NCBI GenBank assembly: GCA_029856435.1
Contig: JAHQXB010000109.1
Coordinates: 1-21,952, forward strand
Origin: Candidatus Jordarchaeia archaeon
Lineage (GTDB): Archaea > Asgardarchaeota > Jordiarchaeia > Jordiarchaeales > Jordiarchaeaceae
Direction: 5' to 3'
Length of the DNA: 21,952 bases
Shown here: positions 2,864 through 16,746 of the stretch, piece by piece
Layout of the letters: every line of letters begins with the position of its first letter
How positions within the stretch are numbered: position 1 is the first letter of the stretch
Made by a program: the position numbers and the translations under genes
The notes under the pieces: generated by a model
Databases searched by the model: none
Seen by the model: the letters and a program-made list of their open reading frames with translations, nothing else
What the model was told of the DNA's origin: nothing

Positions 2864-2882
2864 GATATCATTTTTTGATATC
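2864..2882. repeat. GATATC iteron doublet (13-bp period)
   Basis: GATATC(2864)-ATTTTTT-GATATC(2877); same unit and spacing as the arrays around oriC. Confidence 0.7.
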
Positions 2883-3139
2883 AAAAAGCAAGCACATTTT
2901 GAAAAAAATTTAATCTAACTCGACAATGTTAAATTGATTTGGTTCCCGTATCTGGCGTTATTAAGTGGTGAAAAATCTTTTTTAAGCGTAAAAGAGAGAA
3001 AATCGGGAAGAAACAAGTTACGATAAAACAAATTTGACATTGCCGAGCTAAATAAAAACAATTATACGTTCACATAATTAGTTTTGCACAGAAGGTTGGC
3101 TGTTCGATTGTTAGGTCAGCTAGCGTTAAGTTAAGAAAA

Positions 3140-3418
3140 GTGCTGGGTGTGGCGTTTAAAACTCTTGTAACAGGAGCAAATATTATGTGTACGGTTATGA
3201 TTATGAAAGAGGCAATGTGGTTCCATTTCACAAACACCTAAGTTGAATATATTGTTAAGGGAAAATTGAGGTTAAAGATAAAAAATGAAGACTTAATAAT
3301 TCAAGCAGGGGCTCATATCTTGTTAAGGGAAATATGCTTCATTCACTTTAAGCCTTGGAAAAATCTTGATGTAGTTGACATGTTCTCACCGCCATGCGAA
3401 GAGTACAAAAGCAAATAG
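3140..3418 (+). pseudogene. Frameshifted cupin-domain protein (Cupin_2/COG1917-like) remnant
   Basis: Pieces in three frames: VLGVAFKTLVTGANIMCTVM / YERGNVVPFHKH / EYIVKGKLRLKIKNEDLIIQAG / KGNMLHS / VVDMFSPPCEEYKSK*. The metal-binding H-x-H and GN-x-x-H motifs are recognisable but separated by frameshifts and stops. Confidence 0.75.
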
Positions 3419-3522
3419 CAATACGAGCAACTCTGTTGATTTATCGACCTTAAGGTCGCCTAGAATCGTATTATTTTTGAAAAGGGGCTTACATTTTTAG
3501 GATATGGCTGGTTAATTTTATG

Positions 3523-3720
3523 TGGCGCCGGGTGTGAGATTTGAACTCACGCGGCGGAATTGCGGCCGAAAGGGTATCCGCCAGTAGGTTTCTTGTTCCG
3601 ACCCGACTGAGAGACTGATTTGATCTCGAGCTTCTGCAGTATCTCCCACAGAGATTGCTTCTACCGCCGTACCATGGCCATACACACACAGGATTGTGTG
3701 TTTAACTTGGCTAACCCGGC
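3523..3720 (-). tRNA. tRNA-Ser (probable anticodon CGA) with four predicted introns
   Basis: The minus strand begins GCCGGGT and ends ACCCGGC-G-CCA, with T-arm GTGAG-TTCAAAT-CTCAC. Removing 3675-3705 (15/16), 3632-3660 (30/31), 3590-3624 (37/38) and 3560-3575 (variable arm) gives an 87-nt type II cloverleaf: D-arm GCC-AAGTGGTAC-GGC, anticodon arm GTAGG-CTCGAGA-CCTAC, variable arm GGCGG-ATTT-CCGCC. The anticodon-arm parse is less certain than the rest. Confidence 0.85.
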
Positions 3721-3752
3721 TCTGACTTTTTGTAATTATTCAAGAATTCTTG

Positions 3753-3760
3753 TATATTAA
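3753..3760 (-). promoter_or_regulatory. Probable TATA box of tRNA-Ser
   Basis: TTAATATA on the minus strand, 33-40 nt upstream of G1, preceded by an A-rich BRE-like stretch. Confidence 0.45.
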
Positions 3761-3816
3761 TTTGTTGTATTACCTTAAAAAATGAAGCTTCAATTTATGT
3801 GTAATAGTTCAGTTTC

Positions 3817-4389
3817 TTATCTTGCTCCGGATATGAAGTCTATTTTTGTAATGATTCCTATGATTTCTCCTTTATCAATTACTAGAACGGCGGGGTTTCC
3901 GCTGGCTAGTAGTTGATTTATAACATTAATTTTGGTGGAGGGACTCACGCTGGGGAATGCTTCTTCCATTATTTCCTCGACTTTTTTCTGGAAAATTTGC
4001 TGCCCTTTGGATAAATGTTGAACAATGATTTGGTCATTTATGCTTCCGACTGGGCGCCCATGTTTAACAACTGGCAGTTGGGAGATGTCATTTTTTCTCA
4101 TTAACTCCGTAGCTTCGATGACTAGTGCTTCAGAATCAATTGTTATAACGGGAGAAAACATAATGTCTTTTGCAGTAAGGGATTCTTCATTTGCTTCTTG
4201 CATGGCATTCAATATTTTTTGCAGTGTAGAGAGTCTGGGATCTACCGAGCCTCTTTCAATTCTAGCTATGAGGGATTGACTTACTCCTGCTTTTTCGGCT
4301 AATTCGGTTTGGGTTAGCCCCACTTTCTTTCTGAGTCTTTTAATATCTTCTGGAGTGGGAAGTCGAAACAAAATAAACCCACCTACCAA
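3817..4389 (-). CDS. XRE-type HTH + CBS-pair transcriptional regulator (COG3620)
   Basis: IKRLRKKVGLTQTELAEKAGVSQSLIARIERGSVDPRLSTL (Cro/C1 HTH), then a CBS pair (DIMFSPVITI, ISQLPVV, IIGIITKID). Confidence 0.92.
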   Translation of the reverse strand: MVGGFILFRLPTPEDIKRLRKKVGLTQTELAEKAGVSQSLIARIERGSVDPRLSTLQKILNAMQEANEESLTAKDIMFSPVITIDSEALVIEATELMRKNDISQLPVVKHGRPVGSINDQIIVQHLSKGQQIFQKKVEEIMEEAFPSVSPSTKINVINQLLASGNPAVLVIDKGEIIGIITKIDFISGAR

Positions 4390-4409
4390 AAATACTCATT
4401 TAATACTTG

Positions 4410-4454
4410 GAATATTACCTATAAGAATATTACTCATAAGAATATTGAGGGTAA
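4410..4454. repeat. Three 15-bp tandem units with an AATATT core in the divergent promoter region
   Basis: GAATATTACCTATAA / GAATATTACTCATAA / GAATATTGAGGGTAA at 4410, 4425, 4440. Confidence 0.55.
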
Positions 4455-4630
4455 CTTGTGTAGATCAAATGCATAAACTTCCCACGTCGTTAAAGGGAAG
4501 GGGTTTCTTTTGCTACACGCTCATAGATATTAGAGGGATTTAGCGGTTAAAAAACCGAGAAAGATTATATAACTCTGCAAACTGCTCCAAGAATCGAGGA
4601 AAGAATTTCAAAAAAGATAAAAGTAAGCGG

Positions 4631-6964
4631 TTGGTTTTATTGAAGGCTTCCTGCGAAATTAATTGCAGCGGTATTGTCCAAGGAGTGGGTATGCGGCCTT
4701 TTGTTTATAGACTCGCTGTCAAGTGGGGGCTTGTGGGGTATGTTCAGAATCTTGGCGATGCAGGAGTTCGTATTGTTGTTGAGGGAGAGAAAAGCGCAAT
4801 TGAAAATTTTATTCAAGATCTAAAAAGAGAGAAACCACCTATGGCGGTGTATGAAAAAATAGGTGTGAACTGGGGTTCTTACCAAGGGCGGTTTAAAAAA
4901 TTTACTATTAGTAGAAGCTCCAAGGCAAGCGCTCTGAAAAGCTCCTATATACCTCCAGATATATCAATCTGTGATAAATGCCTCAATGATATTCTAAACC
5001 CAACAGACCGACATTATAAGTATCCCTTCACATGTTGTGCAGACTGCGGTCCCAGATTCACGTCCATTATAGAGTTGCCTTATGACAGAATGAGGACTAC
5101 CATGAAGGATTTTCCCCTTTGCTCTGAATGTGAACAAGAATATAATAATCCCTTGGATAGAAGATACCACGCACAAGGTATTTGCTGCCCAAAATGTGGA
5201 CCAAGATTGTTGCTTTATGATAGACAGGGGGGAATAGTTGATTGTGAAGATCCAATCACTGACGCTGCTAACATAGTTAAAGAGGGGAAGATTCTAGCAA
5301 TAAAAGGAATCGGAGGTACACACCTTGCCACCCTCACAACTGATGATGAATGTATACTGGAATTACGCAGAAGAAAAAGGGATAGGAGATATAAACCATT
5401 TGCGATAATGTCGCTAAATCTAGACAAGATTCGAGAGTATGCCATATTAGATGAATACGAAGAAGAAATCATCACCTCTTTTAGGCGTCCAATAGTTTTA
5501 CTGAAAAAATCTGAGCACTACGACCTATCCGAGTGGATAAGCCCTGGGCTCCACAATGTTGGAGTGATGCTACCGTACTCTGCACTCCATTATCTAATAC
5601 TCCAACAAATTGATGATCCAGCAATTGTAATGACAAGCGGTAATACAACAGACACACCCATGTCTATATCTAATGACGAGATAATATCGCGACTAGGACA
5701 CATAGCGGATTATTTCTTATTACATAATAGAGAAATCTACCAAAGAGCCGATGATTCAGTAATAAAAATAATAAATGGAAAAACTAAAATCATCCGCAGA
5801 TCCCGGGGATTCGTACCAGAGCCAATAGATATAATCCTAGAATATAAGGGCAAAGGAATTCTGGCAGTAGGACCAGAACTGACAGCTACTGTATCGGTAA
5901 TGAAAAGGAATAGGTGCTATCCAAGTCAACATATAGGAAACCTCTCAGGAGACCTAGAAACTATAGAATTTCATGAGAACGTGGTTAATCAAATGTTAAA
6001 ACTAACCCTCGTTGAGCCAGATGCAGTTGCTTGCGATTTGCACCCCAACTTCTACACTACAAGGTATGCAGAGAAATTCGCTGATACGCATAACATAGAA
6101 TTAGTAAGAGTCCAACACCACCACGCACACGCAGCAAAATTAATGGCAGAAAATAATATCACTGAACCAATAATATGCATAACAAGTGACGGAGTGGGAT
6201 ATGGACAAGATGGAACCATTTGGGGCGGCGAAATTCTCCTCGTTTCGTATAACTCTATGGAAAGATTAGCGCATCTAAAACCCCAACCTATGCCGGGTGG
6301 CGATATTAGCACTAAATATCCTACACGCATGTTAACTGCAATACTCAGCAAAGCAATATCTGAGGATGAGCTCAGACAGATACTAGTCAAAAATTACATT
6401 GAGGGATTCAAATACGGCCAGAGGGAAATGGAAGTAGTTTTTAGTGCTTTAAGAAAAAAAGAATATGTTACAACCACAAGCTCGGGAAGGGTCTTAGACT
6501 CTATCTCAGCACTTTTAAAAATATGCCTAGAGAAAACGTATGAGGGAGAACCAGCCATAAGGCTCGAATCAATCGCCGCAAAAGGTAAAGACCACATAAA
6601 AATAACCCCAGAGATAAATAAGCAAAATGGGAAATACGTATTCGACACCACAAAACTACTCAGCGACATCCTAGAAAAACTAAACCACAACAAAATCCAA
6701 GATTTAGCCGCCTCAGGCCAAAGAGCATTCGCAGAAGGACTGGCACAAATGGCAATAACAACAGCAGAAGAAACAGGCATAAAAATAATAGGATTTACTG
6801 GAGGAGTGGCATACAACGAAGCTATAAATAACATAATAAGCAAACTAGTAAAAGAAAACAATCTAAAATTCATTGAACACCAAAAAACCCCTCCGGGAGA
6901 TGCTGGAATTTCCTTAGGACAGGCAGTTATTGCGGCCGCAAAATTAAATGATACCATTAAATGA
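4631..6964 (+). CDS. hypF: [NiFe]-hydrogenase maturation carbamoyltransferase HypF
   Basis: Acylphosphatase domain (GIVQGVGMRPFVYRLA), zinc fingers (CDKC, CADC, CSEC, CPKC), IKGIGG.HL, YrdC-like region, VQHHHAH, C-terminal PPGDAGISLGQA. Confidence 0.97.
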   Translation: MVLLKASCEINCSGIVQGVGMRPFVYRLAVKWGLVGYVQNLGDAGVRIVVEGEKSAIENFIQDLKREKPPMAVYEKIGVNWGSYQGRFKKFTISRSSKASALKSSYIPPDISICDKCLNDILNPTDRHYKYPFTCCADCGPRFTSIIELPYDRMRTTMKDFPLCSECEQEYNNPLDRRYHAQGICCPKCGPRLLLYDRQGGIVDCEDPITDAANIVKEGKILAIKGIGGTHLATLTTDDECILELRRRKRDRRYKPFAIMSLNLDKIREYAILDEYEEEIITSFRRPIVLLKKSEHYDLSEWISPGLHNVGVMLPYSALHYLILQQIDDPAIVMTSGNTTDTPMSISNDEIISRLGHIADYFLLHNREIYQRADDSVIKIINGKTKIIRRSRGFVPEPIDIILEYKGKGILAVGPELTATVSVMKRNRCYPSQHIGNLSGDLETIEFHENVVNQMLKLTLVEPDAVACDLHPNFYTTRYAEKFADTHNIELVRVQHHHAHAAKLMAENNITEPIICITSDGVGYGQDGTIWGGEILLVSYNSMERLAHLKPQPMPGGDISTKYPTRMLTAILSKAISEDELRQILVKNYIEGFKYGQREMEVVFSALRKKEYVTTTSSGRVLDSISALLKICLEKTYEGEPAIRLESIAAKGKDHIKITPEINKQNGKYVFDTTKLLSDILEKLNHNKIQDLAASGQRAFAEGLAQMAITTAEETGIKIIGFTGGVAYNEAINNIISKLVKENNLKFIEHQKTPPGDAGISLGQAVIAAAKLNDTIK

Positions 6965-6981
6965 TATCAAATATTGACATC
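6963..6981. repeat. GATATC/GACATC iteron doublet (13-bp period)
   Basis: GATATC(6963)-AAATATT-GACATC(6976), immediately after the hypF stop. Confidence 0.75.
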
Positions 6982-7100
6982 TAAAAAGGCAATAGGAGGG
7001 AAAAAGGTTATCCAAAGACAAGGGTAGCCCAGAAAAGCAAGATATTGAAAAGGTAAGAAAATACATTGAGAACATATTATCAGACCCCATCGTAAACAAA

Positions 7101-7550
7101 TTGCTTAAATCATCCAACATCACACCCGTCCAATTTGAAACACTTCTAATTAATTTCCTATTAGACGAAGGCGCAGGCAAACCCGTGAAGTACAAAATTA
7201 AAGGTTTCCTAAGGTCACCCAGCAAAAAACGTAAATTCCCTACGCTAAAAACAAAAGGAGTCACACGAGGAGCCTTCAGGAGAGTTCTGGGGCAGGCGTG
7301 CGCCAACGTAATAAAAGCAATATATTCTTTAGTACTACTGGGATACGTTGGCATTCTGGATAGTCCAAGCCTACACCCATATCTTGACATGTCCAACATT
7401 ATAAGCAATTACATGGAACAAATGGAAATAAGTTATGGAAAAGAAATAAGTGAAGAGAAAAAAGCAGCACTAGAAATACTAGAAAAAAACCTACTAGATA
7501 TGATCCAAAAATACGCAGACCCCTTCTTTCTAACTAGTCGTAACGAATAA
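7101..7550 (+). CDS. Conserved-looking hypothetical protein, possible Tfx-like HTH; true start probably upstream
   Basis: GVTRGAFRRVLGQACANVIKAIY resembles the Tfx/sigma-like HTH recognition helix (inference). The frame stays open back to 6996 (LSKDKGSPEKQDIEKVRKYIENILSDPIVNKLL), with SD-like AGGAGGG at 6994-7000. Confidence 0.7.
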   Translation: MLKSSNITPVQFETLLINFLLDEGAGKPVKYKIKGFLRSPSKKRKFPTLKTKGVTRGAFRRVLGQACANVIKAIYSLVLLGYVGILDSPSLHPYLDMSNIISNYMEQMEISYGKEISEEKKAALEILEKNLLDMIQKYADPFFLTSRNE

Positions 7551-7657
7551 CACACACCTATCTCAAACTCTTTTTTGGACAAGTGGTGTACTCAGATCTG
7601 TTCAAGTAAAAACTGTTGACGTGCTAGGATTAGTTTTTGGGCGCTACACTTGTGTAC

Positions 7658-7786
7658 TCTTACAGCAGGTGATGTAGATTAGTCCGATTCCACACCTCAT
7701 TTCGAGGCTCTAAATCAGAAAAGAAGCCCTATGAAAGCTTCCTTCGAAGGCGAAATCGAACGAATCTACACCGCGTCTTACAGCAG
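7658..7786. mobile_element. MITE-like 107-bp insertion or structured ncRNA with 11-bp flanking direct repeats
   Basis: TCTTACAGCAG at 7658-7668 and 7776-7786; 17-bp inverted repeats at 7673-7689 and 7754-7770 (15/17 match); internal hairpins. Confidence 0.5.
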
Positions 7787-7840
7787 AGCTAAAAATTTAT
7801 CAAAAAGTATTCATAAAAGGAACCGACAAGAGACAATTTT

Positions 7841-7872
7841 GATATCACAAAAAGATAGCTAAAAAAGATATC
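7841..7872. repeat. GATATC iteron triplet (13-bp period)
   Basis: GATATC(7841), GATAGC(7854), GATATC(7867) with A-tract spacers; downstream of the RHH gene. Confidence 0.8.
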
Positions 7873-7952
7873 AAATCATTCAGTAAAAACCAATTCAATG
7901 AGAATCTTTTTTCGGTAGACTACAATTAACAAAAGACAGGGTAGTGAAATAT

Positions 7953-8393
7953 CTACGATTTTTTGGTTAAACTCTGATTTTGTTCATCTAATAATTCTGA
8001 GAATTTTAGAACATCGAGTTCACTTTTAGGGAATTCTTTCTCCATTTTTTCTAAGATAGCTATTCTACAAAAAACAGTAGCTCCTTTTTCCCCAAATTTC
8101 CTCTTCAGCAGCTCTAAATAACTACTTGGCATTCTCACATTAAAGTTAGTGTCAAGAAGAGTTATGGGATCCTTCCTAGTATAACGATAAATAACTTTCT
8201 CAACAACCTTAATCCCGTCAGACTCATAAACACGTTCAACTGCCGTTTCGCTTTTACTCATTCCACCAGTAACATCAGAAATCTGTGAAACTTTTCCAGT
8301 TTCAGCCACAGAAGATTCAGAAGCGTCCTCTATTTTTTCCCTCAGGGCGCGCCTACGTCTTTCTTCCTCAGCGATTTTAGTAAGCCTAGGCAA
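7953..8393 (-). CDS. Putative ribbon-helix-helix DNA-binding protein with long charged N-terminal tail
   Basis: C-terminal TNFNVRMP (alternating beta-strand) - SSYLELLKRKF (helix) - GATVFCRIAILEKMEKE (helix) fits the RHH pattern. The N-terminus MPRLTKIAEEERRRRALREKIED is followed by a Ser/Thr/Glu-rich low-complexity linker. Fold call is by pattern only. Confidence 0.65.
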   Translation of the reverse strand: MPRLTKIAEEERRRRALREKIEDASESSVAETGKVSQISDVTGGMSKSETAVERVYESDGIKVVEKVIYRYTRKDPITLLDTNFNVRMPSSYLELLKRKFGEKGATVFCRIAILEKMEKEFPKSELDVLKFSELLDEQNQSLTKKS

Positions 8394-8419
8394 GATACCA
8401 ACCCCGAAGTTATTATCAT

Positions 8420-8506
8420 GACATCATTATTAAGATATCAATTATTAGTAATCTATTAATGATATCAGTAAAATGGTTACTTATTAAGATATCCTTTTTT
8501 GATGTC
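8420..8506. repeat. Seven-unit GATATC iteron array (13-14-bp period)
   Basis: GACATC 8420, GATATC 8434, GTAATC 8448, GATATC 8461, GGTTAC 8475, GATATC 8488, GATGTC 8501; fills most of the gap between the ATPase stop and the RHH start. Confidence 0.85.
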
Positions 8507-8513
8507 TTTAGTA

Positions 8514-9581
8514 TCAATCTATCAGTTTTTCGACAGGAGGTAAAGCCTCAATTATTTCTCTAGTTATTTTTTCACTTCTACCCTCTTTAAAGTTTGAAGC
8601 TGCGACAAAAACACTCTGGTTACAGAGCAACCGAATATCACGCCCTACACCGTGAGCCTTCTCAGTTAAGACAGGGATAGTTTCCTCTTCGAATGGATAA
8701 ATTTCAAAGTTATTCTCATCAAAACTTCCTAGCTTCCCACTAGCCCAGTACAACCTCCTTCCTATAAACTCTCTGACCTTTTTTTCATTCAGCCTTTCAA
8801 GTTCGATTTCCCAGCAACGATCGTAAAGATGGGGAACACCCGCCTTCAGCCCTAAGGCATGGGTCCTTGTCCCCGTGAGTATTAGCATGCAAATCATCTG
8901 ATCTCTACTCTCCGGATTTAGGGCACACGCTTTTAATTCATTCAACTTATCCTTAGATATTTGATAACCCGCAGAACTAGCAAATTTCTTAAAGTCCGAT
9001 TCTTCATTTAGAAGAAAGTTATTAGCATCCTTCTGAGTTAAATCCCCCAACTCCTTAATTTTGATAAAAACTTCCGAATCATTATCACCAAAATCATCAA
9101 TAAAAATCAGGGTAATCTTATTAGTCAAAAGAAAATGCGTCATAATATCCTGCTTAATCAAAGTGTAAATATCTTCCGAACTCATCCTGCTCTTATATTT
9201 CACACCCAACTTTTGAGCTATTACCTCTCCCATCTGGCGCACAAATAATTTACTCTGAGTAACTACTATTGGGCGAAACAAGTATTCTGGATCCCCCTGC
9301 CTCGCTAAATTAGTAAGATCATTATAAATTAACTCTAAAAGCATAGTTTTACCCATACCGGGTTCCTCACTGGTAATAAGAAGATGCCTTTCCTTCGCTT
9401 TTATATAATCATCAATCTCTAGAATCACGTCAGTAGAAGCAACAAAAAGCTCAGGATCACTTAAACGAACCTTTGAAAACGGGTTCCACTTCCATCCGAC
9501 ATGGGCATAATAGGCGTTCCTAGCTTCAGCCACAGAAGGGTAAAGCTTACCAACCGCGCCAAATTTTTCTTCCACACGCAT
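8514..9581 (-). CDS. ExeA/GspA-like (initiator-clade) AAA+ ATPase
   Basis: N-terminal GWKWNPFS...DPELFV (ExeA-type G-L/W-x-x-x-PF), Walker A variant SEEPGMGKT, Walker B LIFIDD, candidate Arg finger LYDRC, sensor II-like GVGRDIRLLC. The ORF track starts at 9698, but SD-like GAGGTG sits directly before ATG 9581 and 6 nt before GTG 9575, so one of these is the likelier start. Confidence 0.85.
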   Translation of the reverse strand: MRVEEKFGAVGKLYPSVAEARNAYYAHVGWKWNPFSKVRLSDPELFVASTDVILEIDDYIKAKERHLLITSEEPGMGKTMLLELIYNDLTNLARQGDPEYLFRPIVVTQSKLFVRQMGEVIAQKLGVKYKSRMSSEDIYTLIKQDIMTHFLLTNKITLIFIDDFGDNDSEVFIKIKELGDLTQKDANNFLLNEESDFKKFASSAGYQISKDKLNELKACALNPESRDQMICMLILTGTRTHALGLKAGVPHLYDRCWEIELERLNEKKVREFIGRRLYWASGKLGSFDENNFEIYPFEEETIPVLTEKAHGVGRDIRLLCNQSVFVAASNFKEGRSEKITREIIEALPPVEKLID

Positions 9582-9728
9582 CACCTCGAAACTAAATAGG
9601 CTTATTGAGGTAAAATCACAATATTCTCCTATATATCGCTCATCAGCTATTTTTAAACGATTTTCAACCCAGATTGCAACACTAAACCAATTAAGCAATT
9701 ATCCTATTACCAATAATTTACTGATAAA

Positions 9729-9779
9729 GATATCGAAATCAGATACTAATATCAAAAAAAGATATCAAAAAAAGATATC
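9729..9779. repeat. GATATC iteron array upstream of the ATPase
   Basis: GATATC 9729 / GATACT 9742; AATATC 9748, GATATC 9761, GATATC 9774 separated by A7 spacers. Confidence 0.8.
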
Positions 9780-11806
9780 CACGCATCGAATCGAGGAAAA
9801 ATTTGACCAAAATCAACACAGGACACAAAAATAGATCATACGGCAGCTCAAAAAAATAAAAGCAAAGGCATATATGGGAGAGAACTAAGCACCATAAAAC
9901 CACACTCTGAAAAGAAGTATATGGAAATTCTCGTAAAATGTTTACAAAAGTGTATACATAGAGCCCACCCTGATAGAAACCCAAAAAAACGAAACTATTT
10001 ATAAAGAGAGTAATACCTAGAGACTATATACGTATCAAAATAGGCACAAAACAGGGTCCTAAAACGCACCGAACAAACTCCACAAACCATAAAATAACTC
10101 AAATTTAGGCCAAAAAACAAGCCCAACAGCAAAAGCGCCAAAGTAAAATTAACGAAAATCCATTTTCCAAAGTTTTTAAATATTCTCTAGCGAATGCTTT
10201 ACATAATTTTACTTTTTTAAATCTATTCCCTAAATTGTTGAAAATTTTTCAAATTAACAATGCAAAATTATAAAAAAATACGTCAAAATATATAAAGAAA
10301 TTAAAAAATAAAAATTGTACAACACACCGCTAGCAAAGGGAACAAGTCCAAAAAATTGAAGTATCCTTTTTTCTGGGATTGTTTGAGGCATGCTATCGCC
10401 GACGATTCCCCCCTTTACCGATGTAAATAGCCTGGACAGATTGGCCTGTGATGGCCACCTAAGCCGAATAGACGAACGAAGTGCCCACTGGCTTCGAGCC
10501 TCTGTTCACTATCATACACCCTACCCCTTTTCTGAGGAAATTGCACTGGCCTGGCAGAAGGAACTGCAACCATCTGTGTGGAAAACACGCTGATGCCATG
10601 GGCAATGTACTTAAAGCAATAGCCCTATCCTCTTATACGTCTGGCCTTAGGTAGTTCAGCGTGCCTCCATCCCCGGCCTTCCTGTCCCCTACAAGGCGTC
10701 AGTTTGTAACTTTAATCTCAAAAAGTCCTGTTCCGCTCCAAAAATTTGTAAAAATTACTACCTTCAAAACTGGAAAAACAACTAAAAGCAAAAAGGAAAG
10801 CCCAAAAAACCCATTTTACTTTACAAGCTGGCGTTCCACTAACTTTCTGGCGCCCATACTTCTCCCCGCCAAAATTTTTTGAACCTCGCGGCGCCCCTTG
10901 TAGGCCTCCCATCGTAAAATTTGGAGTAAACAATGAGGGTGATTCCCCTCCCTCTGACCGCACTCATAATTGCACCCAAACGTCACAAGTCAGCGTCCAT
11001 ATAGACTGCTGAGCCGGGCGGTACATGTCTTAGGAGGGAACCTGTATCCCAAGTGTTTTTTTGTGGCTTTAACCGCCACCACAGTGTTGATTGCCAGCTG
11101 GGTATAGACTTTCCATTTAATTTTTTCCTTTTCGCTTCCAGAAAGTATGGTTTTTCCTTCTTTTTTGGGGAAAGAAGCCTTAAATAACCCCGGTCAAGGA
11201 TAGGTTTAGGAAAAAAAATTAATGAGAAGCTCTATACTCAGAAATAAAAGAATTTTGGACGTGCTCCTAGCGGGGCCACGAAGCTTCACGCCGCTCCTCC
11301 ATCGAAGCGCCCCAATTCTTAGCTATAAAACTAGAATAACGCCGCAGAACACACGGAAAAGGCAATCACCCAAACAGCCTTACTCCAAATAAGAAAAGTA
11401 TGAAAGAAATAGAATTAGATCTATCTTACCAGCACGTACTAGTCTTAACAATTTTAGAAAATAGTTGGATCCAATTAAAAACAAGATCTTTATAGCATTT
11501 AGGAAAGACGTGCTTTGGATATTGCTTTTCGAAATTACTCAGAACTTCAAGCCAAATTTTTGAAGGTGTTATTTTGAACTGAGTGTGTGTACTTTACGGG
11601 GGTCAAAAGTGAGTCTTAGGAATTTATTGTAAAGGATCTATGCCCAAGCGATAAAAACCATTCATTTTGAATATCCGAAATTTAAGTGAAAACGGGGAAC
11701 GAAACATTAAGATTGTCACTCATGCTTAATTTTTGTATCTGCAGGACCTAAAAAAAGTTGTTGAATAGAAAAAAGCACTCTGAAGGTGGGAACTCTGTGG
11801 TAACAT

Positions 11807-11827
11807 ACCCCTCTCTTTCTACTGGAA
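11807..11827 (-). promoter_or_regulatory. Origin recognition box (ORB1)
   Basis: Minus strand TTCCAGTAGAAAGAGAGGGGT: ORB dyad plus G-string. Confidence 0.8.
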
Positions 11828-11989
11828 TTCCTTGTCTAAGATTGCTCGAATTAATTTTATAATAATTATTTGAGTTTTTAGTCCAAAAACTTAGATAAAT
11901 ATGCTTAAATATATGAAAAAGTAACTCTAAATGGGGGAGTAGTTAACAATTAACTATTATAAATAAATAGTTATTTAAGTAGTTAACCC
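11828..11989. other. AT-rich candidate DNA unwinding element
   Basis: About 77% AT by manual count over 11831-11990; lies between oppositely oriented ORB1 and ORB2. Confidence 0.55.
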
Positions 11990-12010
11990 TTACAGTGGAA
12001 ATGAAGGGGT
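11990..12010 (+). promoter_or_regulatory. Origin recognition box (ORB2)
   Basis: TTACAGTGGAAATGAAGGGGT, one dyad mismatch from the canonical ORB. Confidence 0.82.
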
Positions 12011-12492
12011 AGGCGTATTAACTTTAATTTTTATGTGGCTGTGTTTTGTTAGAACACGTGTACCAATTTTTTATATCTCTACCTCTCTTTGTATTGCAAA
12101 GACTCTGCACGATATTATGTTTTGGTACTTTCTGAAAAAGGAATTATATACTGGAACATACTGTTCGGGGACTATTATTGCGCTGTCACCTGCTGCTTCG
12201 CAACCTTCATAGTCCAGCAAACCGGCTTTATGTTTTACTTTCGTGTTGTTTTTTGTCTTCCAAGCGTATCTGAAGCCAAATAATTCTTTGTAGAACTTAA
12301 TCCTTAGGGGGTCGTTTTTTTTCCCTGGTAGAATATCATAGACGTATATGTAATTAATACTTGATCCCTCTTCTTTTGTTTCCCGTTTTTGGACTTATGC
12401 TTTTTTAAAATTTTATGTGACGAGGATATTTTTTAGAACATGTGTAGCTAGTTTTCTCATGACCTGCTAGCTTGTTCATGATTCCTTTTAAA

Positions 12493-12524
12493 GATATCTT
12501 ATATTGATATCTGGCTTTGACATC
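12493..12524. repeat. GATATC iteron triplet inside oriC
   Basis: GATATC 12493, GATATC 12506, GACATC 12519; between ORB2 and ORB3. Confidence 0.85.
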
Positions 12525-12762
12525 TATTCTTTGCTCACAAAAAGAAGGATCCATGTAGGTCTTGTTATTGGTGATACCTTTTCGTTTAATTATTCCTTAT
12601 GACGCGCCAAAATAAAACTTGACCGTGGGGTTACTGGCTCTTTATTTTTATTATTCACATGTGGCGCTCTATTTGTTAATGTTTGGAGTAAAATGAGGCA
12701 TATTTACGGGTTATTTTTGAAAAAAGGGCGATTTTTTCTTGTTAATATGGTTTTTATTTCTT

Positions 12763-12783
12763 ACCCCTTTGTTTCCACTGGAA
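12763..12783 (-). promoter_or_regulatory. Origin recognition box (ORB3)
   Basis: Minus strand TTCCAGTGGAAACAAAGGGGT, matching the canonical archaeal ORB consensus. Confidence 0.92.
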
Positions 12784-13060
12784 ATTTACTTGAAAAATTC
12801 TTTTTTCTTCTTTTTGCTGGATGGGTTTTTGTGAATCTGTTAATGTAGAAATCTGTGGAAAAATTACTTATTTTCTTATTTAAGATAATATAATTTATTA
12901 TTTTTCAAATTGAATCGTTATTTTTGTCTTTTATTGTAAAAAAGTCAAAATTCTTATTTTTTCGGTTTTTTATTTCTTTTTTTGGGTATTCACATTTTAT
13001 GTTATTCATAGATAAACTATATATACTTGTGAGTCTAATAATAGTTCACCTTAATTTCAG

Positions 13061-13546
13061 GTGGAAAGCTTGGCCAAAAGGAAATACAAATTTGAAATCT
13101 CGGATCCTGAGACCAATAGTAAGATAACGCTCACGCTAGAAGGTAAACTTCCCCCTCAGCTTGTGGCTTCCATGATTGAGGATTTATCTAGAAGGCTTTC
13201 GTCGGCTGAGCGGGAAACAGTAGTACCTGAAAATAGCTCTGCGTCTGGTTCCTATATTAATTTGGATAGTCTCTCTATGAAGGAGAAGGTGGAGATTGTC
13301 CTATTAAAGTATTTTAAGCATGGCTGGTTTACTTCTAATGATGTTCATGAACAGTATACTAATCTCTTTAAAGAAGAACTTCCTCTGAGTACCATTTCCA
13401 CCTACCTTGCAAGGATTTTTGAGGATAGTGAGGAACCTATTCTTGAGAGAACGGGCACACGCAAGCAGTACCGTTATCGCCTAATAACTGAAAACGTTAA
13501 GGATAAATTAGCGGCCCTTTCACAGCTTGACTACATTTTTACTTAA
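13061..13546 (+). CDS. Winged-helix domain protein directly upstream of cdc6
   Basis: C-terminal wHTH pattern WFTSNDVHEQY...LSTISTYLARI....LERTGTRKQYRYRL. TTG at 13070 (MAKRKYKF) with SD-like CAGGTGG upstream is a likelier start. Confidence 0.75.
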   Translation: MESLAKRKYKFEISDPETNSKITLTLEGKLPPQLVASMIEDLSRRLSSAERETVVPENSSASGSYINLDSLSMKEKVEIVLLKYFKHGWFTSNDVHEQYTNLFKEELPLSTISTYLARIFEDSEEPILERTGTRKQYRYRLITENVKDKLAALSQLDYIFT

Positions 13547-13555
13547 AATTCTCTT

Positions 13556-13614
13556 GACATCTTTTTTTGACATCTTTTTTTGATTCCTACTTTTTGATAA
13601 CTATTATAGATATC
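13556..13614. repeat. Five-unit iteron array between the wHTH gene and cdc6
   Basis: GACATC 13556, GACATC 13569, GATTCC 13582, GATAAC 13596, GATATC 13609, mostly with T-tract spacers. Confidence 0.8.
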
Positions 13615-13678
13615 CTTAGTATCAAGAGTATTACTCACATATTTTTACTCCTACCAAAATATTTCTACGTAACCTTTA

Positions 13679-13699
13679 TTACCTTGATTTCAAATGGAA
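13679..13699 (-). promoter_or_regulatory. Degenerate ORB-like site upstream of cdc6
   Basis: Minus strand TTCCATTTGAAATCAAGGTAA resembles ORB2 but lacks a full G-string. Confidence 0.35.
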
Positions 13700-13817
13700 C
13701 TTTTGCCCACCAACTCCCCTATTCCGGTTGGAATCATAAGAAATTTAGCGCGGAAGCGATTTCTTATTTGATTAGTTCCTTGCTTGAGGTTACCATCAAC
13801 TATGAGAGGTTCAAAAA

Positions 13818-15056
13818 TTGAGTGAAAAGCCCCTCGATGTAATATTCGAAAAATATCTATCAGGCCCTAGGATATTTAAAGACCGAGAGGTTCTCCGCCC
13901 CACATATATTCCCGAGAACCTACCCCACCGCGACAAGGAGATAAGCCGCGTGGGGCTCATTTTAGCCACCGCCCTAAAAAGTGGAACACCATCAAACATA
14001 TTCGTCTATGGGAAAACTGGCACAGGGAAGACGGCAGTAATTAAGTACGTTTTGAAGCATTTGGCAGAGAAATGTACGGAGTTGGGGGTTTCTATACCGA
14101 ACTATGTTTATTTGAATTGTAGTACTGTTAACACGAATTACCGCGTTTTGGCTCATTTGTGTGAGACTTTGGGTGTTGATGTGCCTTTTACTGGATTGCC
14201 TACAGATGAGGTTTATAATCGTTTTATTTCGGCTCTGGATTCGAAAAAGGGGCTCATGATTATTGTTTTGGATGAGGTAGATAAATTAGTGGATAAAGAC
14301 GGTGACGCTGTGCTTTACGATTTGACTAGGATTAATAATTCTGTTCTGAAAAAAGCTCGGGTTAGCATTATTGGGATTTCTAACAATCTTAAGTTTAAGG
14401 AGAACTTGGATCCTCGTGTTTTGAGTAGTTTGGGGGAGGAGGAACTTGTTTTTCCGCCTTACGGTGCATTGGAACTCCAGGATATTCTTAGGGAGCGGGC
14501 AAAAATGAGTTTTTTTGATGGTGTTTTAGAGGAGCCTGGTGTGATTAATCTTTGTTCTGCTCTTGCAGCTAGGGAGCATGGTGATGCAAGGCGTGCTTTG
14601 GATCTCTTGCGTGTTGCGGGTGAGCAAGCTGAGAGGATGGGAGCGAGTAAGGTTACAGAGGAGCATGTTAAGATGGCGCAGAATATTTTAGAAACTGATC
14701 GGATTTCTGAGGTGATTTCAACTCTGCCAGTTCAATCTAAACTCGTACTTTATAGCATTTATTTGTTGGAGAAGAACCAAGCTTCAAAAATTACTACAGG
14801 CCGCGTTTATAGCGTATATTCGGATCTTTGTAAGATGGTTGACTTAGAAACATTGGGGGAGAGACGTGTTAGTGGTCTTATTGCGGAATTGGATATGCTT
14901 GGAATAATAGTTGCTAAGCTTAAGAGTGAGGGGCGTTATGGCATGACTAAGAAAATCAAAATTAATGTTCCGATTAAACAGATAAAGGACATACTTGAAA
15001 ATGACTATCATATTAAAAAGGTTGTTAATTATATGCCGCCCCCCTTTCAAGATTAG
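13818..15056 (+). CDS. cdc6: Orc1/Cdc6 replication initiator
   Basis: LRPTYIPENLPHRDKEI, Walker A GKTGTGKT, Walker B LDEVD, GDARRALDLLR, C-terminal wHTH with AELDMLGII...GRYG. Confidence 0.97.
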   Translation: MSEKPLDVIFEKYLSGPRIFKDREVLRPTYIPENLPHRDKEISRVGLILATALKSGTPSNIFVYGKTGTGKTAVIKYVLKHLAEKCTELGVSIPNYVYLNCSTVNTNYRVLAHLCETLGVDVPFTGLPTDEVYNRFISALDSKKGLMIIVLDEVDKLVDKDGDAVLYDLTRINNSVLKKARVSIIGISNNLKFKENLDPRVLSSLGEEELVFPPYGALELQDILRERAKMSFFDGVLEEPGVINLCSALAAREHGDARRALDLLRVAGEQAERMGASKVTEEHVKMAQNILETDRISEVISTLPVQSKLVLYSIYLLEKNQASKITTGRVYSVYSDLCKMVDLETLGERRVSGLIAELDMLGIIVAKLKSEGRYGMTKKIKINVPIKQIKDILENDYHIKKVVNYMPPPFQD

Positions 15057-15060
15057 TTTT

Positions 15061-15092
15061 GATATCTTAAAAAGACATCAAAATAAGATATC
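15061..15092. repeat. GATATC iteron triplet between convergent cdc6 and DP1
   Basis: GATATC 15061, GACATC 15074, GATATC 15087. Confidence 0.85.
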
Positions 15093-15126: not shown

Positions 15127-16746
15127 TTAGAGAAAATTTAATTCTGTGATTTTGTGTGATTCTAGGTCAAGGATTATTGGCTTGGCTGGAGTTGGTTCTA
15201 ATCCCATTGATTTTTGGTATACCGTTTGTGCTTGGAAGGTTCCAGAGTTTAGCAGAATCACCCCACGGTAGCTCCCAGTGTCATTAATGTGTATGTGCCC
15301 GCAGTGTAGTATGTCTGGTACTCTTTCAATTACTAGCCAGTCTTGTGTTTCGGCGGCTATTGCTGTGTTTCCGTATATTGGGCTTAGGTGTCTACCTTTT
15401 ATTAATTCCATCATTGCTCTGTGTGGTTTTGTTTTATCTATCGGGATCGACGCCATTACATCGTTAAGGCTTTCGCCATGGTACATTAGAACTTCAATGT
15501 CGTGAATCCGAATCTGGGCTGGATCTCCTAACATTTCTATACCTATTTCATACAATGGTTCTGCGTATTCTTTGGGTATTGCGGGTTGGGGTAGCGCTAT
15601 TCTAGTGGCGTCATGTCCTCCGGGAATAGCGATTGTTTTTATGTGTTCTGGGATGTCTTCTAAATATTTTGCTGCTAATTCATACTGTTCATAAATGTTT
15701 GTTACTAGTAGGTCCTCTTCCTGTGTGGGATAAATGCCTACGCCGTCTACTATATCCCCTGCGATTAATAGATATTTTACGCGTCCTGCGAGTTCTCTAC
15801 TCTTTTCGTCTCCTATTTCCCCTCTTAACCATTGTACGAATCGTTTAAATGAGTCAGCTAGGAAGTGTTTACTACCAAAGTGGGTGTCTGAAATAAATGC
15901 GGCGCAGACTGGTTCACTAGCCTTATTACGTTCATTTTTGAGTGGTATATCGGGCCATGAGAAGTCGTTTACGTTGAATATCTCATTAGACAAGTAACCT
16001 TTAAAGCACATTACTTGGTCTAGCATGATGTACTCTGCTTTTTTTAATAATTCACTATTTTTCTCATATATGATGGCTTTAATTGTGCTTTCAAGGTCTT
16101 CTAGCTCTAGTAAAATGTTTCCTGACTTTGTTTTTTGTATGGACGTTACCATTCCTATGATGTGGACTTGTTTATCTTTGCTTGAAGGAATTTTTGAGAG
16201 TTTGGATATGTTTTCGATATCCCCTCTTTTTATTATTATATTGTATATCCTCTTGTATCTGTCTATAAAGTAGTTTATGAAGTCATCGAGTGTGCCTTTG
16301 CTTTTTATTACTCCCGTTGGATTGAATATTACTTCAAATTTGGCATCAATATCTTTTGCTAAATACCTTTTCGGGCTTCCTTGTATTAATAATGCTTGGT
16401 TTGTTATATTAGACTCCACGTTTTTTATCATCTTGGGGCTTACTTCTTGGGTTTTCGTAGCTATTGCTTCTGTTTTAGTTTTTTCTGCGATTGGCTCATA
16501 ACTTTCTTGAGATTCGGTTTTCTCTATTTCATCACCTATCGCAAACTTTTCTTCCAGTAAGTTGATGTACTTGTTATCTATTACAATTATGTTTTCCGAG
16601 TTTTCTTCAATTTTTAAAATTAATTTCTTTGCAAGCTCTTCTGGATTTTCATAATGTGAAAAAGCTTTTAGTGCTTCAGGAGTTACCTGATATCCTGCTT
16701 CGAGAATAATTTGTAATGCTCTTTTTATTCTATCTTTAGCTTGCAA
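15127..16746 (-). CDS. polB: DNA polymerase D (Pol II) small subunit DP1, proofreading exonuclease
   Basis: OB-fold region plus calcineurin-like motifs ISDTHFGS, AGDIVDG.GIYP.Q, PGGHD, YHG, RHLSPIYG, HCGHIH, NSGTFQAQT.YQ. Confidence 0.95.
   Translation of the reverse strand: MQAKDRIKRALQIILEAGYQVTPEALKAFSHYENPEELAKKLILKIEENSENIIVIDNKYINLLEEKFAIGDEIEKTESQESYEPIAEKTKTEAIATKTQEVSPKMIKNVESNITNQALLIQGSPKRYLAKDIDAKFEVIFNPTGVIKSKGTLDDFINYFIDRYKRIYNIIIKRGDIENISKLSKIPSSKDKQVHIIGMVTSIQKTKSGNILLELEDLESTIKAIIYEKNSELLKKAEYIMLDQVMCFKGYLSNEIFNVNDFSWPDIPLKNERNKASEPVCAAFISDTHFGSKHFLADSFKRFVQWLRGEIGDEKSRELAGRVKYLLIAGDIVDGVGIYPTQEEDLLVTNIYEQYELAAKYLEDIPEHIKTIAIPGGHDATRIALPQPAIPKEYAEPLYEIGIEMLGDPAQIRIHDIEVLMYHGESLNDVMASIPIDKTKPHRAMMELIKGRHLSPIYGNTAIAAETQDWLVIERVPDILHCGHIHINDTGSYRGVILLNSGTFQAQTVYQKSMGLEPTPAKPIILDLESHKITELNFL

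Follow-up and report, generated by a model that had tools for sequence, protein, structure and literature searches.

What does an AAA+ ATPase gene do when it is paired with the gene of a small tailed protein and set among phased palindromic repeats beside the chromosomal replication origin of an Asgard archaeon? This question is raised by the window, by which we mean the whole 21,952-nucleotide stretch of Candidatus Jordarchaeia DNA that was analysed (contig JAHQXB010000109.1), a Freyarchaeia locus with the following genes and origin elements.

7101..7550, plus strand: orf149, a possible sigma-4/DUF134-like HTH protein, a neighbour kept in every lineage
7953..8393, minus strand: small tailed protein, 146 aa, directly 3' of the ATPase gene
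8514..9581, minus strand: AAA+ ATPase, 355 aa, ExeA/Orc1-Cdc6-like
11808..12783: oriC, with three ORBs and a weaker ORB copy
11808-11827 (minus), 11990-12011 (plus), and 12762-12783 (minus): the ORB elements; the weaker copy is at 12080-12099
13818..15056, plus strand: Orc1/Cdc6 initiator gene (context)
15127..16746, minus strand: PolD small subunit DP1 (context)

The two co-oriented genes, which a sequence-only reading of this DNA had proposed as a cassette, both occur as open reading frames at these coordinates and are conserved in relatives, and their distance from the ORBs, given there as 2-4 kb, was measured as 2.2-3.9 kb. For the ATPase, the most likely start codon is the ATG at 9581, preceded by GAGGTGA, which yields 355 aa, the length of its relatives. 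The cassette is linked to oriC: in a genome-wide ORB scan, no contig of the genome other than this 22-kb one had two strict ORB matches, and the ORBs, cdc6, and DP1 all lie within 2-6 kb at this locus. An Rfam search of the whole window matched no family. A mobile element, a plasmid contig, and a secretion or transposon context were ruled out, because the synteny is that of housekeeping genes in a complete chromosome and no genes of those kinds are present.

The repeats form the following arrays of GATATC-type hexamers.

2864..2882: array A, two units, the outermost; counterpart at L001:16003-16021
6950..6981: array B, three units, at the hypF stop and immediately upstream of orf149; also in F. 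deiterrae
7841..7872: array C, three units, where the small gene and orf149 converge, between their 3' ends
8394..8506: array D, in the space separating the ATPase stop from the small-gene start, its last unit at the TTG start, which the last conserved unit overlaps; units, at 8420-8506, GACATC, GATATC, GTAATC, GATATC, then GATATC and GATGTC
9723..9779: array E, five units, upstream of the ATPase gene
12493..12524: array F, three units, inside oriC, between ORB2 and ORB3
13556..13614: array G, five units, between orf161 and cdc6
15061..15092: array H, three units, where cdc6 and PolD-DP1 converge, between their 3' ends; the site in F. deiterrae has three perfect units

The arrays that had been noticed upstream of, between, and downstream of the two genes were all found as described (E, D, and C, respectively). 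They had been taken to bracket the cassette, and period-13 GATATC arrays do flank the pair, but there are eight in all, spread over 12 kb (2864-15092) and straddling oriC with its ORBs, cdc6, and PolD-DP1. The window contains 19 copies of the hexamer GATATC compared with 5.0 ± 2.6 in shuffles, of which 0 of 100 reach 19, and the dyad GAYATC-N7-GAYATC occurs nine times in this 22-kb contig and not once in the remaining 3.52 Mb of the genome, these genome-wide controls ruling out a chance origin of the arrays. In the complete genome of Ca. Freyarchaeum deiterrae, nine of ten dyads fall within 11.4 kb at the equivalent locus. The hexamers of array E are invariant in five Freyarchaeum genomes while its promoter-proximal flank diverges, and array D also combines conserved hexamers with variable spacers. 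As with the repeated sites of type I partition systems, genome-unique phased arrays adjoin the operon.

The initiator-clade motifs that had been read in the ATPase (PGMGKT, IDD, and an insert of ~40 aa) are present, and the alignment shows the motifs to be conserved across lineages: Walker A is PGMGKT, Walker B is IFIDD, Sensor-1 is T238, R255 is also conserved, and Sensor-2 is G-x-G-R-D-x-R, of the form G-x-[GP]-R-D-x-R, with the ~40-aa helical insert after Walker B (residues ~186-226) found in the Frey/Jord lineage only. In Pfam, the protein matches NB-ARC and AAA_22, the latter with E 1e-4 and 23.1 bits, under the 27-bit cut-off, and not AAA_31 or CbiA; among its distant relatives, called ExeA in database entries, P0033 and P0036 clear the AAA_22 cut-off with 34 and 53 bits. 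The TIGR03015 profile matches 11 of 13 family members (17.7 bits for the window protein vs. a 324-bit cut-off), and TIGR02928 (orc1/cdc6) matches eight of 13, with a best E of 1.4e-9. The predicted fold points in the same direction, its matches being Cdc6/Orc (Foldseek E 1.7e-3), with VIA Z values of 8.3, 8.1, and 7.8 over ~200 residues, with a large rmsd and at Z values that the tool describes as common; MuB and TnsC are also among the fold matches. In addition, the Walker B strand is separated from beta2 by two helices, as in the initiator-specific motif. PDB sequence and profile searches with alignments A1, A2, A4, and A6 returned nothing useful, and with alignment A5 P-loop-level matches only; the relatives themselves number only 26 among 1.84 billion representative proteins.

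Orc1/Cdc6 proteins are therefore the nearest to the ATPase in structure and in profile matches, sharing the AAA+ initiator-clade module with its lid and the location at an origin, but the ATPase ends after the lid, ~40 residues past sensor 2, with no Pfam match to WHD_Cdc6 or any other HTH, unlike the true Cdc6 at 13818-15056. Given that the winged-helix domain is missing, its targeting to DNA would need a partner. With ExeA/GspA, it shares an AAA_22-type core and an N-terminal ExeA-type G-x5-PF motif, whereas its score stays below the family cut-off and no ExeB/GspB partner or peptidoglycan-binding domain occurs at the loci examined.

A candidate for that partner is the small protein. In an alignment of 16 relatives, conservation is seen at its N-terminal tip, MPRLTKIAEKAREQE, and in its C-terminal domain, made of an Arc-like strand, FNVRMP, and then two helices, while the low-complexity linker joining them varies. 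The linker had been seen before, but the Arg-rich N-terminal run reported along with it is not conserved in the relatives, in which the conserved tip is the one just given. A weak Pfam Arc match (E 0.06, residues 83-99) and the sequence pattern make the protein a candidate RHH and a candidate binder of the GATATC arrays, and the Thor and Gerd-labelled proteins at the equivalent position match RHH_1 (best E 6e-5), Arc, and RHH_3. The AlphaFold monomer consists of helices only, and Foldseek with this model gave no match; hhalign between the Frey/Jord and the Thor/Gerd small-protein alignments, either whole or with the C-terminal domains only, gave no significant match, and neither did a tblastn search of the Gerd-type protein against phage records for viral relatives of aCcr1. 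A complex prediction with two small-protein copies and the ATPase reached a score of 0.25, with the mark at 0.32, and counts as evidence neither way.

We then have to ask whether the pair and the arrays travel together. The survey covered 11 loci from four Asgard lineages, with arrays examined in Frey, Jord, Gerd-labelled, and five Thor genomes. The order of ATPase and then small tailed protein is kept in all 11 loci, with the pair found also in Jordarchaeales, Thorarchaeota, and Heimdall/Gerd-labelled genomes, and genome-unique palindrome arrays surround it in Frey, Jord, Gerd-labelled, and four of the five Thor genomes. Homologous pairs found mainly beside secretion or transposon genes, with neither repeats nor a link to oriC, would have counted against the proposal, and the reverse was found: the loci examined hold no secretion, peptidoglycan-binding, or transposase partners of the ATPase, and ORB clusters lie in the array zone in both Freyarchaeia and Thorarchaeota. 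At the Gerd-labelled loci only, a T2SSE-type ATPase is encoded on the opposite strand at a distance of 2.5 kb, and the linkage of hypF to the cassette is constant across loci.

Around the equivalent gene pair, the Thor and Gerd-labelled genomes have a different palindrome as the array unit, GTAWTAC, with a period of 9. Of the 117 dyads in 26 Thorarchaeota genomes, 102 are no more than 25 kb from the ATPase, with a median distance of 5.5 kb; the arrays extend over 16-40 kb, with some inside coding sequence. Five Thor genomes have their sole ORB cluster at a distance of 9-15 kb from the ATPase, and in the four whose dyads were mapped it falls within the array zone. In G369, where the arrays are degenerate, the strict Thor dyad pattern has no site near the cassette, and the genome-wide motif count was made in G083 in place of the L006 genome. 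In Jordarchaeales, the period-13 dyads occur at the ATPase gene only, so that autoregulation alone could explain them there. The link between arrays and cassette is exclusive. The arrays follow the cassette and not Cdc6, because a different cassette comes with a different motif, whereas the ORB consensus is the same in the Frey and the Thor/Gerd lineages, and Orc1/Cdc6 was ruled out as the array binder on these grounds. The strand of the small protein carries S/T at the predicted DNA-facing positions in Thor/Gerd vs. N, N, and R in Frey/Jord.

The next question is what occupies this slot where the cassette is missing. In the Asgard family f4 (cassette in 0/3 genomes), the order is DP1-cdc6-ORB-X-orf149, with X being parA-parB, placed between cdc6/ORB and the orf149 homologue; this parA matches AAA_31 (E 1e-53), and the parB has ParB_N and HTH_ParB. 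Replacement of one system by the other is also seen in the family tallies, which are largely complementary but rest on few lineages because related genomes are non-independent observations: the ATPase occurs in 4/5 genomes of f1, 5/5 of f2, 9/12 of f13, and 78/89 of f31 and two related families, where ParB_N occurs in 0/5, 0/5, 1/12, and 8/89, respectively, and the reverse holds in f4 (ParB_N 3/3, ATPase 0/3) and f8 (29/31 and 0/31). Many Asgard families have neither system. The genome of the window contains eight ParA/MinD-type genes elsewhere, and so another segregation ATPase could be present.

Putting these results together, the cassette probably encodes a machine for chromosome partition or origin handling that has a new class of motor and has not been described before, and we found no publication in the literature describing a system of this ATPase, small protein, and arrays. 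The sequence-only reading had left two possibilities side by side, a partition-like logic or an initiator-like ATPase recruited by an RHH adaptor, and synteny, arrays, the oriC link, and parA-parB in the slot lend support to either. Judging from sequence comparisons, we lean slightly towards partition or organisation of the origin domain by a three-part, origin-tied chromosomal system. Dimers of the small protein would bind the palindromic GATATC hexamers, the eight phased arrays over ~12 kb around oriC would nucleate a large nucleoprotein domain, and the conserved N-terminal tip on its flexible linker would recruit or stimulate the AAA+ ATPase, which has all the catalytic motifs and no sequence-specific DNA-binding domain of its own. 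The ATPase would then drive ATP-dependent assembly and disassembly on DNA like its relatives ORC, MuB, and TnsC, with origin-domain positioning or segregation as the output, equivalent to the role of ParABS at oriC, and the arrays upstream of and between both genes would also autoregulate the operon.

MuB and TnsC bind DNA non-specifically in an ATP-dependent manner and are dismantled by a partner; by analogy, this logic of coating DNA and being removed by a partner could replace ParA. To our knowledge, initiator-clade AAA+ proteins load or remodel at origins or transposition targets and do not work in partition. The stronger claim, namely that this is the first partition machine in which an initiator-clade (ORC/ExeA-like) AAA+, in place of a ParA-, actin-, or tubulin-type NTPase, and a tailed RHH adaptor act on origin-flanking arrays, replacing ParABS in several Asgard classes, we rate somewhat below an even chance.

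Among the closest known systems, type Ib partition (ParF-ParG-parH of TP228 and delta-omega of pSM19035) shares the layout of a two-gene operon of an NTPase and then a tailed small protein with a C-terminal RHH-type domain, putative here, and likewise has short-repeat arrays upstream of and around the operon that are probably autoregulatory here too. The differences are that the present system is chromosomal, with its sites spread around oriC as eight arrays in a 12-kb region, and that its motor is an initiator-clade AAA+ (ExeA/Orc-like) in place of a deviant-Walker-A ParA: it has PGMGKT and not KGGxGK[ST], and folds of the Cdc6/Orc, TnsC, and MuB kind and not the ParA/MinD fold. The short tip, disordered linker, and C-terminal RHH-like domain of the small protein recall ParG, omega, and SegB (PMC7308502, PMC8682754), with no sequence similarity to SegB detected. 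SegAB-segS of Sulfolobales likewise pairs an archaeal chromosomal ATPase with a site-specific binder, of RHH type there and putatively so here, whose N-terminus is conserved, and its sites adjoin the operon, but SegA is a ParA-type ATPase (PMC8682754, PMC12139799), and we found no report of SegAB in Asgard archaea in the literature consulted. Chromosomal ParABS at oriC, as in bacteria and the Asgard f4 family, is also origin-proximal with sites clustered around oriC; the cassette differs from it in having neither a ParA fold nor a ParB_N CTPase domain, and in having phased hexamer arrays rather than 16-bp parS as its sites.

Since one array lies between ORBs, replication control fits that array equally well. 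The small protein would then tether the winged-helix-less ORC-like ATPase at the oriC arrays without the DNA being moved, and the device would license, time, or block initiation, aid or hinder Orc1/Cdc6 or MCM loading, or sequester the origin. Such a role would suit the Orc1/Cdc6 folds and profiles nearest to the ATPase, the other arrays on both sides of cdc6, and the ORB clusters within the array zone in Thorarchaeota too. We nevertheless consider it unlikely, given that f4 has parA-parB and not an initiator paralogue in the slot, that arrays accompany the operon but not the ORBs in Jordarchaeales, that the Thor arrays run well past an origin and into coding sequence, and that a related cassette on a plasmid has no recognisable ORB beside it.

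Partition or organisation of the origin domain also assigns the reading of the palindromes to the small protein, and here orf149 is the competitor: its product, with its possible HTH, would read them, leaving the small tailed protein only as adaptor or regulator. Homologues of orf149 are present at every locus examined, in Jordarchaeales as the third operon gene, one family member matches the DUF134 HTH family (E 0.005, a weak HTH assignment), and orf149 still adjoins parAB in f4. This last point cuts both ways, because a gene that persists where parAB replaces both arrays and cassette is not tied to the arrays; moreover, RHH proteins are documented as readers of GTATTA-type boxes (PMC9976892), and where the motif differs, so do the strand residues of the small protein. 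We regard orf149 as a still more doubtful choice than control of the origin.

The least probable reading, in our opinion, is a local transcription or cell-cycle regulator, with the small protein as an aCcr1/CdrS-type RHH repressor of the operon and its neighbours and the ATPase as its cofactor or merely co-regulated: arrays do lie upstream of the ATPase gene, over the small-gene start, and upstream of orf149 and cdc6, and in Jordarchaeales they are limited to the operon, but they are not merely promoter sites, because two of the eight are in 3'-3' gaps, one is inside oriC, and those of Thor are also in coding sequence, and the strict coupling to the ATPase across classes and the replacement by parAB would be left unexplained. 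The RHH protein aCcr1 of Sulfolobales reads the proven box AGTATTA / TGTATTAT (PMC9976892, PMC9976878), and the Thor/Gerd unit TTGTATTAC resembles this GTATTA-type palindrome. Although aCcr1 is a small archaeal RHH, as the protein here may be, it has ~58 aa, no tail, no ATPase partner, and sites scattered genome-wide in promoters, and the Frey/Jord motif is GATATC.

A 2024 review noted that Asgard archaea have ParA/ParB homologues, which are possibly used (PMC7617429). The Jordarchaeia/Freyarchaeia, the Thorarchaeota, and the Heimdall/Gerd-labelled group are mostly without ParB, and their origin has instead an ORC-like ATPase, a putative adaptor, and a field of sites resembling a centromere. 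If this system moves or organises origin DNA, it would be a new motor class for DNA partition, and ORC-type ATPases would be linked to chromosome handling beyond initiation, otherwise seen in eukaryotes, in the archaeal group closest to eukaryotes. The system is also tractable, with small proteins, defined sites, and a related plasmid-borne cassette in a haloarchaeon that can be cultured. With this plasmid protein, the small protein gave no match in BLASTP, and hhalign of the Frey/Jord protein (E 0.16) aligned only FNVRMP with LTQRMP. The cassette in question, on the 58-kb plasmid NZ_CP100358.1 of Natronosalvus rutilus, consists of a related ATPase (E 2e-6, 93% coverage) and then a 70-aa protein with a similar basic tip, linker, and Arc-type domain (Pfam Arc E 7e-4).

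The contig C176 (21,952 bp, here in full) comes from an Asgard genome of 3.54 Mb in the Freyarchaeia/Jordarchaeia group; relatives of the window's proteins carry the names Ca. Freyarchaeum deiterrae, Freyarchaeota and Jordarchaeales. Its genes include hypF, a CBS-HTH gene, cdc6 and the gene for the PolD small subunit (DP1), together with three canonical origin (ORB) elements:

11808-11827, ORB
11990-12011, ORB
12762-12783, ORB

C176 is the sole contig in its genome with two strict ORB matches, and the complete F. deiterrae chromosome has one, at the same locus. On these grounds this is the chromosomal oriC; on replication, the F. deiterrae genome paper gives only skew-based bidirectional replication. 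The order conserved in Frey/Jord genomes is DP1, cdc6, a small ORF, ORBs, an AAA+ ATPase, a small tailed protein, orf149 and hypF. The ATPase and small-protein genes, which the sequence-only reading had paired as a partition or origin-control cassette, are where it placed them:

8514-9581, minus strand, AAA+ ATPase, 355 aa
7953-8393, minus strand, small tailed protein, 146 aa
7101-7550, plus strand, orf149, neighbour of the cassette, possible HTH protein

The ATPase has Walker A (PGMGKT), Walker B (IFIDD), sensor-1 T238, R255 and sensor-2 G-x-G-R-D-x-R, all retained in relatives of only ~29% identity, which lack the helical insert of ~40 aa that follows Walker B in the window protein, as had been noticed. 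The family is rare (26 matches in a search of 1.84 billion representative proteins); the window ATPase matches Pfam AAA_22 below threshold, while TIGR03015 (ExeA-like) is matched by 11 of 13 family members and TIGR02928 (orc1/cdc6) by 8 of 13. The AlphaFold model (pLDDT 64 overall, core >85) has archaeal Cdc6/Orc1 as its nearest folds, then STAND, TnsC and MuB. The window ATPase lacks a winged helix and any other DNA-binding domain, and Orc1/Cdc6 membership is ruled out by the missing winged helix, as is membership of an ExeA secretion system by loci devoid of such context.

In the alignment of relatives, the small protein has a conserved N-terminal tip, MPRLTKIAEKAREQE, a variable linker of ~40 residues and an invariant C-terminal domain, FNVRMP followed by two helices; the Arg-rich run singled out earlier is present but not conserved. 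A weak Pfam Arc match, the sequence pattern and analogy make it a candidate RHH protein, and its monomer structure model was uninformative on the fold.

GATATC occurs 19 times in the window against 5.0 expected, and it forms phased arrays that precede, separate and follow the two genes. The claim that arrays bracket the cassette thus holds for three of them, but they are not confined there, and eight lie in the origin domain, of which they are a property:

2864, array start
6950, array start
7841, array start
8394, array start
9723, array start
12493, array start
13556, array start
15061, array start

Convergent 3' ends flank two of the eight, and ORBs flank one. Genome-wide, GAYATC-N7-GAYATC occurs 9 times on C176 and not once in the remaining 3.52 Mb, periods 26 and 27 being likewise restricted to C176, and in F. 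deiterrae (complete, 3.58 Mb) 9 of 10 GATATC-N6-8-GATATC sites fall inside 11.4 kb at the equivalent genes. Across five Freyarchaeum genomes the hexamers are kept and the spacers diverge; Jordarchaeales, which have the FNVRMP strand in common with Frey, carry period-13 GAYATC dyads at the ATPase gene only. An additional GATATC array of five units separates oriC from the ATPase in F. deiterrae (L001:8945-9016) and has no counterpart in the window; array number therefore varies within the genus.

The ATPase is present in 106 of 400 Asgard genomes: 4/5 and 5/5 in two Jordarchaeia/Freyarchaeia families (f1, f2), 9/12 in f13 (labelled Heimdall/Gerd) and 78/89 in the thorarchaeotal f31 with two related families. 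In each of the 11 loci inspected the ATPase is directly followed by a small protein of like design, whose tip is MSLLxKYRKEE, whose linker is rich in K and S and whose end is RHH-type; two of these proteins match Pfam RHH_1 (best E 6e-5). Profile comparison detected no statistically significant homology between the Thor/Gerd and Frey small proteins, and their orthology is therefore positional. The Thor/Gerd pairs are surrounded by a different palindrome, GTAWTAC with a 9-bp period; of the 117 dyads in 26 Thorarchaeota genomes, 103 share a contig with the ATPase and 102 are no more than 25 kb from it (median 5.5 kb), and one genome has arrays in nearly all gaps across 16 kb, plus inside hypF. 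The presumed DNA-facing strand residues, N, N, R in Frey/Jord versus S/T in Thor/Gerd, change together with the motif; this is an Asgard-wide module whose DNA motif changes with it. The archaeal RHH protein aCcr1 reads AGTATTA / TGTATTAT (PMC9976892, PMC9976878). One 15-mer, GTAATACTCGTAATA, is found unchanged in many Thor genomes (e.g., G321:C28:6307, G335:C5:16919, G340:C78:69132), roughly 3-11 kb away from the ATPase when both are on one contig; it probably represents either a conserved unit of the arrays or a site within a conserved gene.

On a 58-kb plasmid of Natronosalvus rutilus, the gene for a related ATPase (E 2e-6, 93% coverage, 21% identity) is followed by one for a 70-aa protein, in which an acidic linker joins a MGRRKITEEAERKK tip to an Arc-type domain (Pfam Arc E 7e-4); three TGCAATC boxes lie beside these genes. 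A second match, in Halobacterium noricense (plasmid NZ_CP089469.1, 279828-281406), has a different layout: its AAA_22 ATPase carries a fused C-terminal winged HTH (HVO_A0114-like), and a separate wHTH protein comes next. This is another way of directing a related ATPase to DNA.

In f4, complete 2.8-Mb genomes without the cassette, the order is DP1, cdc6, ORB, parA (AAA_31, E 1e-53), parB (ParB_N + HTH_ParB), two small ORFs, an orf149 homologue (49% identity) and CBS-HTH. Cassette and parAB are largely complementary across Asgard families, a tally with few independent lineages behind it. The window's genome has no ParB_N, and its eight ParA/MinD-type genes are located elsewhere than the cassette, for which membership of ParA-type partition families is rejected. 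We somewhat favor a partition-like or origin-organizing system, in which the small protein would bind the arrays and its tail would engage the AAA+ ATPase, the latter replacing ParA; a literature search found no published description of such a system.

The main cdc6 orthologue of Thorarchaeota is remote from the cassette; in the five genomes checked, 9-15 kb separate the ATPase from the sole ORB cluster, and two of the five clusters include an inverted ORB pair ~150 bp apart. Initiator genes and origin are uncoupled in this class. The cluster falls within the array zone in 4/4 genomes with mapped dyads, so the arrays straddle an origin in both Freyarchaeia and Thorarchaeota, and the ORB consensus is unchanged. 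In the Thorarchaeota genomes G369 and G313 the main Orc1/Cdc6 orthologue is hundreds of kb away from the sole ORB cluster, and a second Cdc6 paralogue (~30% identity) is found at a distance of 10-35 kb from the cassette. Control of origin firing is a less likely reading than the favored one. That orf149 is the true array binder is a slightly weaker proposal still, compatible with the other readings, and purely local transcriptional or cell-cycle regulation is improbable.

Both hypF (4631-6964 in the window) and orf149 neighbor the pair in every cassette-bearing lineage examined, and hypF is absent from the neighborhood in f4, whose slot is occupied by parAB. The orf149 frame is open from ~6994 (6994-7550, plus strand), and residues before 7101 match longer relatives; no ATG, GTG or TTG precedes 7101, and a TAG occupies the apparent start-codon position of a close relative (G120), so that either an unusual start codon is used or the gene is N-terminally shortened in the window. 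The ~1.8 kb from the ATPase promoter to the first ORB (9985-11800) contains no convincing ORF and no Rfam match, and includes a relatively GC-rich part (10.5-11.4 kb, 43% GC); a diverged gene or an RNA lacking annotation could lie there. Beside cdc6 lies one more small gene:

13061-13546, plus strand, orf161, small protein with a winged-helix-like C-terminus

It matches no Pfam family, adjoins cdc6 in Frey and Jord genomes and likewise in a distant locus (L008), and may be a cdc6-associated origin protein.
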